64,000 nucleotides of DNA, from contig OZ242320.1 of NCBI GenBank assembly GCA_965208125.1, forward strand, positions 416,001 to 480,000, given 5' to 3'. Shown here piece by piece: positions 33,779 to 36,182 of the stretch. Within the stretch, counting starts at the first letter, position 1. The number at the start of each line of letters is the position of its first letter. A model generated the notes under the pieces. The model searched no databases and was not told the DNA's origin. It was given only the letters and a program-made list of their open reading frames with translations. The position numbers were made by a program, and so were the translations under genes. The DNA is from Candidatus Latescibacterota bacterium. GTDB taxonomy: Bacteria > Latescibacterota > UBA2968.

Positions 33779-33846
33779 AAAAAGACCCCGGCGTCCAAAA
33801 AATTAAACCGCAACAGCGCGAAAAAGTACCTTCTCAAAGTGCTCTA

Positions 33847-33875
33847 ATTAAAGACGTACATTGGACTTGTGTCAA
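33847..33875 (-). promoter_or_regulatory. Putative sigma70 promoter of the FAR-AGPS operon
   Basis: TTGACA (33875-33870), 17-nt spacer, TTTAAT (33852-33847). Confidence 0.6.
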
Positions 33876-33923
33876 CCTCTTTCTCGCGCAGTTTACAAGC
33901 GCAAATCCTTATCAAAAATGGGG

Positions 33924-33952
33924 TTGACAAAAAAAAGCTCAACTCCTATCTT
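33924..33952 (+). promoter_or_regulatory. Putative sigma70 promoter of the ndk-fab operon
   Basis: TTGACA (33924-33929), 17-nt spacer, TATCTT (33947-33952). Confidence 0.6.
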
Positions 33953-34000
33953 GTCCACCTTTGAGCCGATATGAGCCTATTTTTTATACGGATTTTATGC

Positions 34001-34399
34001 ATGGAACGCACTTTGCTCATCGTCAAACCCGACGCTGTTGCACAAAATGTAATCGGTGAAATTATTCGCCGTCTCGAAAAAAAAAGCTTTCGAATTGTAA
34101 ATCTTGAAATGGTTCGCCTCACGCGCAAACAGGCTGCCGAGTTTTATGCAGTACATTGCCAACGGCCTTTTTACAACGACCTGCTCGATTTTATGACCTC
34201 CGGTCCCTGTGTACCCATGGCACTCGAGCGAGACAACGCCGTCGCATTTTTGCGCGAAGTCATTGGCAGCACCAATCCCGAAGAAGCCGCAGAAGGAACC
34301 ATTCGCAAAGACTTTGCAACCGATATTCAAAACAATGCCGTACACGCCTCAGATTCACTGGAAAATGCAGCCAAAGAAGTGACTTTCTTTTTTGGTTAA
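34001..34399 (+). CDS. ndk: Nucleoside diphosphate kinase
   Basis: MERTLLIVKPDAV, FMTSGP, GTIR and NAVHASDS motifs. Confidence 0.96.
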   Translation: MERTLLIVKPDAVAQNVIGEIIRRLEKKSFRIVNLEMVRLTRKQAAEFYAVHCQRPFYNDLLDFMTSGPCVPMALERDNAVAFLREVIGSTNPEEAAEGTIRKDFATDIQNNAVHASDSLENAAKEVTFFFG

Positions 34400-34416
34400 A
34401 AGCATTCATCTACCTT

Positions 34417-34932
34417 ATGAAAATCGACCTGAGAGATATACAGGAAGGCGAGACCGAACTTTCGTTTGAAGAAACGCCTGCCGACCTGCACATTACCGGA
34501 GAAGACACCCCATTTGCAGGTGCCATAAACACCCGTCTCGTCGTGTACAAATTTGGCGACTCGCTCTCTGCCAAAGGGCAAACCACCTGTCTGGTGCGCC
34601 CCGAATGCGCGCGGTGCCTGGAAACCATCGAATTTCCCATCGCCATCTCATACACATTCGTTTTTCAAAAAGGTCGTCCCGACCAGATGAACGATGACGA
34701 TGACGAAACGCTAATCTGGCTCAATGAAGAACCCGGCGAAATAGACCTGGGCAATGACGTGAAAGATTATATTTTGCTCGAACTACCCATGATTCCAACA
34801 TGCGCTGCATCGCCTTCTGGCCCTTGTGAACGCTATGAGCAAGACCCCCAGGAATTGCTGGAATACACGCGTGAAAAGAGCCACGACCCGCGTTGGGATG
34901 CTCTCCGCGCACTAAAAGAAAACGCACAGTAA
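34417..34932 (+). CDS. yceD: DUF177/YceD-family protein
   Basis: CARCL, LLELPM..C and DPRWDALRAL motifs; directly upstream of rpmF. Confidence 0.9.
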   Translation: MKIDLRDIQEGETELSFEETPADLHITGEDTPFAGAINTRLVVYKFGDSLSAKGQTTCLVRPECARCLETIEFPIAISYTFVFQKGRPDQMNDDDDETLIWLNEEPGEIDLGNDVKDYILLELPMIPTCAASPSGPCERYEQDPQELLEYTREKSHDPRWDALRALKENAQ

Positions 34933-34962
34933 ACAGAGCAACTATTAAAAAGGAATACCACC

Positions 34963-35145
34963 ATGGCCAACCCCAAACGAAAAAGTTCAAATTCCCGCAC
35001 AGGTAAACGCCGTGCCAATTGGAAGCTGCGTCAACCCACTTTTAACGAATGTCCCAACTGTGGGCAGCAAAAAATACCCCATCGGGTCTGTGGAAATTGC
35101 GGTTATTACAATGGGCGCGAAGTGGTTGAAACCGATGGCTTTTAA
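34963..35145 (+). CDS. rpmF: 50S ribosomal protein L32 (zinc-ribbon form)
   Basis: [17 protein letters not shown]...[13 protein letters not shown]. Confidence 0.97.
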
Positions 35146-35189
35146 TTTGGGTCTAAAGTTGCGCAGACTTTGAGGAGCAGAGAATTATC

Positions 35190-36182
35190 ATGTATCCCCT
35201 TGCAGCCACCATCACCGGGGTTGGGCACTATGTCCCAGAACAAAAGTTGACCAATACCGACCTCGAAAAAATAGTCGATACATCCGACGAGTGGATCACA
35301 TCCCGCACCGGCATCAAAGAACGTCGCATTCTCGACGAGGGATTGGGCACGTCTTTTATGGCTCTAAAATCTCTGGAAGCCATTCTGCACAGCAAAGGAC
35401 TCGATGCCAGAGATATCGACCTGATCATCGTTGCAACCATCACGCCCGACATGTTATTTCCATCAACGGCCTGTCTGGTACAGGACCAAATTGGTGCCAC
35501 AAATGCCTGGGCTTTTGATCTGGCAGCAGCCTGTAGCGGTTTTTTATATGCTCTGATGGTGGGGGGGCAATTTATTGAAACGGGCGCACACAAACGCGTA
35601 GTCGTCATTGGAGCCGACAAAATGAGCAGCATTACAGACTACACCGACCGCGACACCTGTGTGCTCTTTGGCGATGGCGCAGGCGCCGTTTTACTCGAAC
35701 CCGGCGAACCCGGTTTGGGGCTTAAAGACTTTATCCTCTATTCTGATGGCAGCGGCGTAAAACATCTGCGACAACCCGCTGGCGGCAGTGTGCTTCCGGC
35801 CTCTCGTAAAACCGTTGAAAAAAAAATGCACTATATTTATCAAGATGGCCGCGAAGTTTTCAAATTTGCAGTCCCCAAAATGGCCGAAGTTTCCGCTCAA
35901 ATTCTCGAACGCAACGGCCTGGTCGGCAAAGACATCGCGCTTTTTGTACCGCACCAGGCCAACAAACGCATCATTGACGCATGTGTCAAACGCACAGATA
36001 TACCCGAAGATCGCGTTGTGGTCAATATCGACCGCTATGCCAACACCTCTGCTGCCACCATTCCCATCGGCCTGTCTGAAGCAGTCGAACAGGGCCGCCT
36101 CAGCCGCGGTGACAATGTGCTGTTCGCCAGTGCCGGTGCGGGATATACCTGGGGCAGCACCCTGCTAACCTGGGCTTATTAA
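35190..36182 (+). CDS. fabH: 3-oxoacyl-ACP synthase III
   Basis: DTSDEWI..RTGIKERR, AACSGF, LFGDGAGA, PHQANKRII and NTSAA motifs. Confidence 0.96.
   Translation: MYPLAATITGVGHYVPEQKLTNTDLEKIVDTSDEWITSRTGIKERRILDEGLGTSFMALKSLEAILHSKGLDARDIDLIIVATITPDMLFPSTACLVQDQIGATNAWAFDLAAACSGFLYALMVGGQFIETGAHKRVVVIGADKMSSITDYTDRDTCVLFGDGAGAVLLEPGEPGLGLKDFILYSDGSGVKHLRQPAGGSVLPASRKTVEKKMHYIYQDGREVFKFAVPKMAEVSAQILERNGLVGKDIALFVPHQANKRIIDACVKRTDIPEDRVVVNIDRYANTSAATIPIGLSEAVEQGRLSRGDNVLFASAGAGYTWGSTLLTWAY

Follow-up and report, generated by a model that had tools for sequence, protein, structure and literature searches.

In the usual account, bacterial phospholipid synthesis begins with PlsB, or else with PlsX and PlsY, acting on glycerol-3-phosphate (G3P) made by GpsA. 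A stretch of 64,000 nucleotides from a Latescibacterota bacterium (assembly GCA_965208125.1, contig OZ242320.1, positions 416,001 to 480,000 of the forward strand; hereafter the window) points to a different beginning. In this stretch, a minus-strand cassette encoding a stand-alone fatty acyl reductase (FAR), an orphan protein here called P0001, an alkyl-dihydroxyacetonephosphate synthase (AGPS) and a short-chain dehydrogenase/reductase (SDR) diverges from the genes ndk-yceD-rpmF-fabHDG-acpP-fabF-rnc, in which the slot of plsX is vacant. The preferred reading, given a probability of roughly 0.55, is that P0001 has taken over the first acylation from PlsX/PlsY, probably with dihydroxyacetone phosphate (DHAP) as its acceptor, in a lineage that has given up the PlsX/PlsY/GpsA entry and has no PlsB. 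The vacant slot would then be one consequence of the loss of that whole entry. Across the phylum, it is P0001 together with the FAR module, not AGPS, that occurs in place of plsX, plsY and gpsA.

An earlier note on this DNA had claimed that plsX is missing from its canonical position, and the locus bears this out, as the spacer between rpmF and fabH is only 44 nucleotides long and thus leaves no space for plsX. In plsX-bearing relatives within the phylum, the gene lies between yceD and fabH (loci L005, L007 and L009), and in those fetched relatives from the families f1 and f2 that reach this point, fabH directly follows rpmF. The absence extends to the whole genome (G000), which is a single contig of 5.75 Mb and 96.4% complete. 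Family searches of this genome for PlsX (PF02504), PlsY (PF02660) and the two GpsA domains (PF07479 and PF01210) gave no matches, while the same searches detected these families in control genomes. The acyltransferase family PF01553 was matched by a single protein of PlsC type with 248 residues, and this search found neither a PlsB-like protein nor an ElbD-like PF01553 domain. In addition, tblastn with six PlsX, two PlsY and four GpsA proteins from the same phylum found no homologue in the genome (best E 0.055-3.3), while the yceD, fabH and fabD proteins encoded beside those queries matched the window locus with E down to 1e-103. With none of plsX, plsY, plsB and gpsA found, the DHAP route suggested by the earlier note is not refuted. 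The downstream steps are retained, with cdsA, with pgsA and pssA over their cut-offs, and with a complete fab cluster.

The phyletic pattern was followed in 150 genomes assigned to Latescibacterota by database labels, together with the window's own genome. The class of the window comprises 114 genomes (29 in family f1, 19 in f2, 64 in f3 and two in f4), and the other classes comprise 36. A plsX over the cut-off was found in 1/114 class genomes and 33/36 genomes of the other classes, while plsY and gpsA were each found in 0/114 and 29/36. The pattern of P0001 is the reverse, with 112/114 in the class and 2/36 outside it (G043 and G057), and FAR-type reductases follow with 112/114 and 3/36. The two class genomes negative for P0001 are only 75% and 78% complete, and the absences of plsX, plsY and gpsA are repeated in many single-contig genomes of the class. 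The lone plsX of the class (G128, contig C8, locus L008) is found on a separate contig of a genome without plsY and gpsA, beside a yceD that weakly resembles the yceD of the window (28% identity, E 6e-4), and it could be a binning artefact or represent a transitional state. Outside the class, G043 (99% complete, two contigs) lacks plsX, plsY and gpsA and encodes the FAR-P0001 pair. The anticorrelation between plsX and the FAR-AGPS cassette, which the earlier note proposed as a test, therefore fails for the full cassette, because relatives lacking AGPS or SDR also lack plsX, plsY and gpsA, but it holds for P0001 and FAR. Likewise, the proposal that an acyl/alkyl-DHAP route replaced PlsX/PlsY stands as far as the loss of plsX, plsY and gpsA and the reciprocal pattern of P0001 are concerned, but not for the AGPS cassette as a whole.

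P0001 is a protein of 646 residues without a Pfam or NCBIfam family, and sequence alone does not place it, since the only profile match is short and a PDB sequence search with the P0001 profile gave no matches. Against PF01553 it remains below threshold (12.7 bits versus a cut-off of 23, E 0.12, residues 438-579), and accordingly the PF01553 scan of its own genome does not detect it. Aligned by hhalign to a profile of 21 PlsC sequences, the P0001 profile matched only over 64 C-terminal columns, with a probability of 0.73 and E 0.077. Its relatives form 170 clusters, nearly all annotated as "hypothetical" and originating from metagenome-assembled genomes (MAGs) labelled Latescibacteria, Handelsmanbacteria or "Gemmatimonadetes bacterium". 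Among 1.84 billion representative proteins, a search with its profile yielded just 64 relatives, of which ~7 are full length and the others mostly short pieces, and the strong matches among them are P0001's own narrow family. An AlphaFold (AF2) model built from 23 sequences (pLDDT 80.4, pTM 0.84) shows a helical N-terminal domain (residues ~1-355), for which only generic helical-bundle matches were obtained (Z < 7), followed by a domain of predicted PlsC/GPAT fold (residues ~359-642). Foldseek matched the model to Thermotoga maritima PlsC (5kym) with E 4.4e-5. In the VIA comparison, residues 359-642 aligned with 5kym at Z 11.9 and a root-mean-square deviation of 3.2 over 214 of 232 residues; 5kym was the sole chain at Z >= 8, while human GPAT1 and squash GPAT reached Z 7.3 and 6.5, respectively. 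PlsC/GPAT-type acyltransferases share HX4D as their catalytic motif. A candidate counterpart in P0001 is HX4(D/E) starting at H447, as H447 is invariant in 23/23 sequences and position 452 carries either D (17 sequences) or E (six). In addition, PF01553 clusters made up 28 of the 30 matches among the language-model neighbours of P0001. Together with PlsC, P0001 is the only acyltransferase candidate in the genome.

The gene next to P0001 suggests which acceptor may be used. Both Pfam domains of an alkyl-DHAP synthase are present in its product, which matches the solved mammalian AGPS structure 4bby over residues 46-606 with E 6.3e-153 and Dictyostelium AGPS (2uuu) with 9.4e-91, the next family being D-lactate dehydrogenase at 2.7e-24; judged by sequence, it is a true AGPS ortholog. 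AGPS requires acyl-DHAP and a fatty alcohol as substrates. P0001 is read as a DHAP acyltransferase because AGPS needs acyl-DHAP and the adjacent P0001 is the sole candidate besides PlsC, and the loss of GpsA fits a keto reduction that takes place after acylation. P0001 would then be a functional counterpart of the eukaryotic and myxobacterial DHAP acyltransferases. As for the other partners, FAR has its NAD_binding_4 and Sterile domains both over cut-offs and adjoins P0001 in 9/9 fetched f1/f2 genomes as well as in G043 and G057. Orthologs of the SDR adjoin AGPS in most of the relatives listed, and the SDR tracks AGPS rather than P0001; acyl/alkyl-DHAP would be its substrate.

In the proposed mechanism, P0001 would transfer an acyl chain, presumably from acyl-acyl carrier protein (acyl-ACP) of the adjacent fatty acid synthesis system, onto DHAP. 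The resulting 1-acyl-DHAP would either be reduced to lysophosphatidic acid (LPA) or be converted by AGPS, with a fatty alcohol made by FAR, to 1-alkyl-DHAP, the keto group being reduced by the SDR. The single PlsC, followed by CdsA, PssA and PgsA, could then complete both ester and ether phospholipids. The P0001 route would be essential, and ether lipids may be core components of the membrane. A broader version, in which the class and at least one more lineage make all their glycerolipids via acyl-DHAP with an orphan PlsC-fold enzyme and without PlsX, PlsY, PlsB or a G3P dehydrogenase, is more tentative, with the odds leaning slightly against it.

Several observations weigh against the replacement by P0001 or limit how far it can be generalised. 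Outside the class, G057 encodes the plsX/plsY/gpsA set and also a FAR-P0001-AGPS-SDR cassette, although this cassette makes up an entire 7.1-kb contig (C112, locus L031), which could be a binning error or reflect a transitional state. G053, of family f14, lacks plsX, plsY, gpsA and P0001 alike. AGPS shows ortholog-level matches in 108/114 class genomes, only paralog-level matches in G109, G114, G129, G137 (genus g20) and G110, and none in G012 (an assembly of 430 contigs), yet these six genomes and G043, which has no AGPS match either, also lack plsX, plsY and gpsA. The same three genes are missing where the SDR has no ortholog-level match, namely in 11/114 class genomes and G043, and no candidate for the acyl-DHAP reductase was identified in genomes without ortholog-level AGPS or SDR. 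As the relatives share ancestry, a single event in evolution, or very few, may account for the class-wide pattern. In quick trees of P0001 (14 rows) and FAR (12 rows), G043 and G057 stayed unresolved at the base, so that the P0001 tree leaves independent acquisition by these two genomes undecided, and no claim of horizontal transfer or of a number of events is made. At the protein level, the sub-threshold score of P0001 against PF01553 and its hhalign probability of 0.73 (E 0.077) also count against the assignment, and H447 is, by its motif, a putative equivalent of the catalytic histidine of PlsC. The ElbD-like proteins of G109 and G053 each include a canonical PF01553 domain that might serve these two genomes as the acyltransferase for DHAP or G3P. 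Finally, G3P is available in the window's own genome, which encodes pgsA, an enzyme that needs G3P, and a glycerol kinase (GlpK, C1:4468971-4470440, outside the window; 671 bits versus a cut-off of 590), and G3P is thus a possible acceptor.

This last point leads to an unlikely but substantial alternative, in which P0001 is a PlsB-like G3P acyltransferase supplied by glycerol kinase, uptake or an unrecognised dehydrogenase, and AGPS forms a minor side branch. Such an enzyme would be in keeping with the GlpK and PgsA just described, with the retention of P0001 in genomes without AGPS and SDR, with the lack of linkage between P0001 and AGPS in G081 (f3), and with the fact that the closest fold matches of P0001 are G3P or LPA acyltransferases. 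However, gpsA is found in 0/114 class genomes, and among five genomes tested a GlpK over the cut-off was found only in the window's own, not in G029, G109, G081 or G043. Moreover, the conserved AGPS needs acyl-DHAP in a genome without another acyltransferase candidate, and P0001 is a neighbour of both FAR and AGPS throughout the order as well as in G057, all of which argues against this alternative.

Slightly less probable again is that P0001 serves only a specialised ether-lipid or wax-like fatty alcohol pathway, with housekeeping acylation performed by PlsC acting twice or by an unrecognised enzyme. P0001 always either lies close to FAR-type reductases or shares their distribution; in G043 it belongs to an elb-like set of genes for a HAD hydrolase, a zinc-dependent alcohol dehydrogenase (Zn-ADH), a LarA-like protein and a lipid kinase; and G053 must still build membranes without plsX, plsY, gpsA and P0001. 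Still, a specialised role fits poorly with the presence of P0001 in 112/114 class genomes in which AGPS and SDR are dispensable, searches with PF01553, PF02660 and PF02504 gave no other first-step enzyme, and the gap in G053 could be filled by its ElbD-like protein, which brings a PF01553 domain of its own. It is very improbable that incomplete assemblies or the search method merely simulate the absences. While the window's own genome is 96.4% complete, PlsY is a small membrane protein and many relatives are fragmented bins, this genome is a single contig with which many single-contig class genomes agree, the same searches succeeded in 29-33 of the 36 other-class genomes and in the controls, tblastn was independently negative, and the slot itself is a 44-nt spacer.

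The earlier note had also claimed that the ether-lipid cassette is divergently coupled to the fab cluster by back-to-back TTGACA promoters, and the divergent arrangement is real and, like the promoter-like sites, conserved in the order comprising f1 and f2. FAR-P0001 diverges from ndk in 9/9 fetched f1/f2 genomes, and the full order SDR-AGPS-P0001-FAR followed by the divergent ndk-yceD-rpmF-fabH is kept in seven of the nine and rearranged in the other two. Insertions of 4-9 kb break the ndk-yceD or FAR-ndk spacer at L042 (G016, 11241-15318), L044 (G010, 11375-16983) and L047 (G027, 8643-17820), and AGPS of G018 lies ~110 kb from the cassette. In f3, the single genome examined for linkage (G081) has P0001 and AGPS-SDR at separate places, and P0001 of the AGPS-less G109 stands without cassette genes nearby. 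In the FAR-ndk spacer, the plus-strand site was the best in a scan of positions 26000-41500 (10/12 matches), tied with one intragenic site, and the number of sites in this region was not above chance (20 versus 14.3 +/- 4.6 in shuffles). The scan does not include the minus-strand site among its hits, since its rule demands an A as the second base of the second hexamer. Nevertheless, 9/9 intergenic regions from the two families, whose spacers are otherwise poorly alignable with each other, preserve the two pairs of hexamers with their spacing of 17 nt, and the plus-strand site retains an invariant TTGACA and TAnnTT in all nine. Invariant positions amount to 20/24 within the hexamers versus 17/195 elsewhere (Fisher one-sided p 1.1e-14, which is not a strict probability as the sequences are related). 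This conservation supports both sites as putative sigma-70-like promoters conserved across the order, and the shared control region of ~220 nt could thereby couple lipid assembly to fatty acid supply. Contigs from RNA libraries of two studies cover the cassette and the fab genes at 90-99% identity, none of those listed bridging the FAR-ndk spacer; such contigs carry no transcript ends, strand or expression level and may stem from DNA carry-over, and are thus a weak indication that these genes are expressed.

Table 1 Features of the cassette and the divergent fab locus in the window.
Feature	Position	Strand	Basis
YegS/DgkB-type lipid kinase	25389-26285	-	Pfam DAGK_cat and YegS_C
SDR, candidate acyl/alkyl-DHAP reductase	27528-28400	-	Pfam adh_short; NCBIfam PRK06181, 301 bits
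AGPS (alkyl-DHAP synthase)	28375-30219	-	Pfam FAD_binding_4 and FAD-oxidase_C
P0001, 646-residue orphan, candidate first-step (DHAP) acyltransferase	30224-32164	-	no Pfam/NCBIfam family
FAR, stand-alone fatty acyl reductase	32174-33778	-	Pfam NAD_binding_4 (PF07993), 219 bits; Sterile (PF03015), 55.8 bits
Promoter-like site for the FAR cassette, TTGACA-17-TTTAAT	33875-33847	-	sequence read and conservation
Promoter-like site for ndk-yceD-rpmF-fab, TTGACA-17-TATCTT	33924-33952	+	scan 10/12 and conservation
ndk	33998-34399	+	Pfam NDK, 181.6 bits
yceD (DUF177)	34417-34932	+	Pfam YceD, 69.6 bits
rpmF (L32)	34963-35145	+	Pfam Ribosomal_L32p, 94.8 bits
rpmF-fabH spacer, vacant plsX slot	35146-35189	+	sequence read
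fabH	35190-36182	+	NCBIfam PRK09352, 432 bits; TIGR00747, 391 bits
fabD	36183-37100	+	Pfam match
fabG	37124-37870	+	Pfam match
acpP	37906-38145	+	Pfam match
fabF	38186-39478	+	Pfam match
rnc	39490-40266	+	Pfam match

Comparable chemistry is known from other organisms, where it accompanies the usual entry. Myxococcus xanthus retains the canonical phospholipid entry, yeast has an acyl-DHAP route, and in eukaryotes this route operates alongside the acylation of G3P. According to the accessible text of PMC13012113, the M. xanthus operon MXAN_1676-MXAN_1675-MXAN_1674 encodes AGPS and FARAT, in which a FAR and a GNPAT-type acyltransferase are fused, and the AGPS route plays a minor part in myxobacteria. 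As far as that text goes, this operon is the nearest described system, being likewise a bacterial cluster of FAR, acyltransferase and AGPS functions leading to an animal-type alkyl-DHAP route. It differs in that the FAR and the acyltransferase are fused, whereas in the window they are separate genes and the acyltransferase, an orphan by sequence, scores below the PF01553 threshold, and in that the AGPS route is minor there, whereas the present class lacks the canonical entry. The eukaryotic peroxisomal ether-lipid pathway, outlined in the same accessible text as FAR1/2, GNPAT, AGPS and an acyl/alkyl-DHAP reductase (PMC13012113), follows the same predicted reaction sequence, and its mammalian AGPS is matched by that of the window (E 6.3e-153). 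However, the bacterium has no peroxisomes, the layout of P0001 is distinct, with a helical N-terminal domain of ~355 residues and HX4(D/E) at residue 447, and what is one of two entries in eukaryotes would be the sole entry here. Compared with the bacterial PlsX/PlsY/GpsA and PlsB pathways, P0001 would occupy the same first-acylation position ahead of the retained PlsC, CdsA, PgsA and PssA, but none of plsX, plsY, gpsA and plsB is present and the replacement has a predicted PlsC/GPAT fold rather than that of PlsY.

A further comparison concerns ElbD of the myxobacterial elbABCDE ether-lipid cluster, the domain content of which is given in the accessible portions of PMC13012113 and 10.64898/2026.06.23.733905. 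The FAR matches of f3 lie mostly in open frames of ~1400 residues. The large proteins of G109 (f3; L049, G109:C72, 1095-5291, minus strand; 1398 residues) and G053 (f14; L050, G053:C2, 2007-6356, plus strand; 1449 residues) share FAR, AMP-binding and PF01553 domains with ElbD as described there, and an ACP (PP-binding) domain is listed in the G053 protein only. In contrast, the family of the window has a stand-alone FAR only, paired with P0001, and the FAR of the window is 35-44% identical to the ElbD-like FAR module.

Matches to agps and elbD in sponge Latescibacterota MAGs are reported in a June 2026 preprint (10.64898/2026.06.23.733905), the accessible text of which contains no mention of PlsX, PlsY, GpsA or DHAP. 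PMC6431249, as far as its text is accessible, covers Latescibacter with pls or gps terms in a survey at phylum level. The literature search, with the supplementary tables of PMC13012113 and 10.64898/2026.06.23.733905 outside it, found no statement that the class lacks the canonical entry, nor did it find a paper combining alkylglycerone phosphate synthase, bacteria and PlsY; the loss of the PlsX/PlsY/GpsA entry in the class thus appears to be new. A whole widespread class without PlsB, PlsX, PlsY and GpsA provides a concrete candidate for a new family of essential enzymes and, if the role proposed for P0001 is true, for a third route by which bacteria enter the synthesis of membrane phospholipids. 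In the literature examined, a DHAP-first route is otherwise reported from eukaryotes and as the minor myxobacterial route. Since ether lipids would branch off at the very first intermediate, they could be bulk membrane components, which would explain bacterial ether lipids as main membrane lipids and bears on the producers of sponge and sediment ether lipids.

The YegS/DgkB-type kinase near the cassette is a possible member of the system. Its orthologs were found in G043 (49% identity, 7 kb from FAR-P0001) and G008 (87%), and none was seen in the other eight f1/f2 relatives within the stretch fetched. At the G043 locus (L028, G043:C2:363000-382000), a HAD hydrolase, a Zn-ADH, a LarA-like protein (Lar_N) and the YegS-type kinase are encoded within 8 kb after FAR-P0001 (7060-18612), which gives this AGPS-less genome an elb-like gene set. 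The locus looks like an ether-forming module swapped around a constant frame of FAR, P0001 and kinase. A search of the window's own genome for orthologs of the G043 HAD, Zn-ADH and LarA-like genes gave only paralog-level Zn-ADH matches.

PF13685 was tried as a marker for G1P dehydrogenase and proved uninformative, being detected in 13/14 control genomes. Elsewhere in the window's own genome, a PcrB/GGGPS-family gene (C1:4023761-4024411, outside the window; 132 bits) lies ~9 kb from pgsA, and genes of this family are present in 5/5 genomes tested; it may act in archaeal-type lipids or in some other process. Within the window, the longest open reading frame of a GH3 glycosidase (26476-27690, minus strand) overlaps that of the SDR by 163 nt, so the true start of the glycosidase gene probably lies further downstream. 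A protein with ankyrin repeats, a domain of eukaryote-like type, is encoded at 23605-24522 (minus strand), adjoining an ABC ATPase (24526-25200). On the other side of the cassette, the order fabD-fabG-acpP-fabF-rnc is kept in relatives. Past rnc and a lipoate-ligase-like gene, the region 41736-46044 (plus strand) encodes a MutL-family protein (PF13941), a 372-residue protein with weak biotin/lipoyl matches and a DUF6754 protein.

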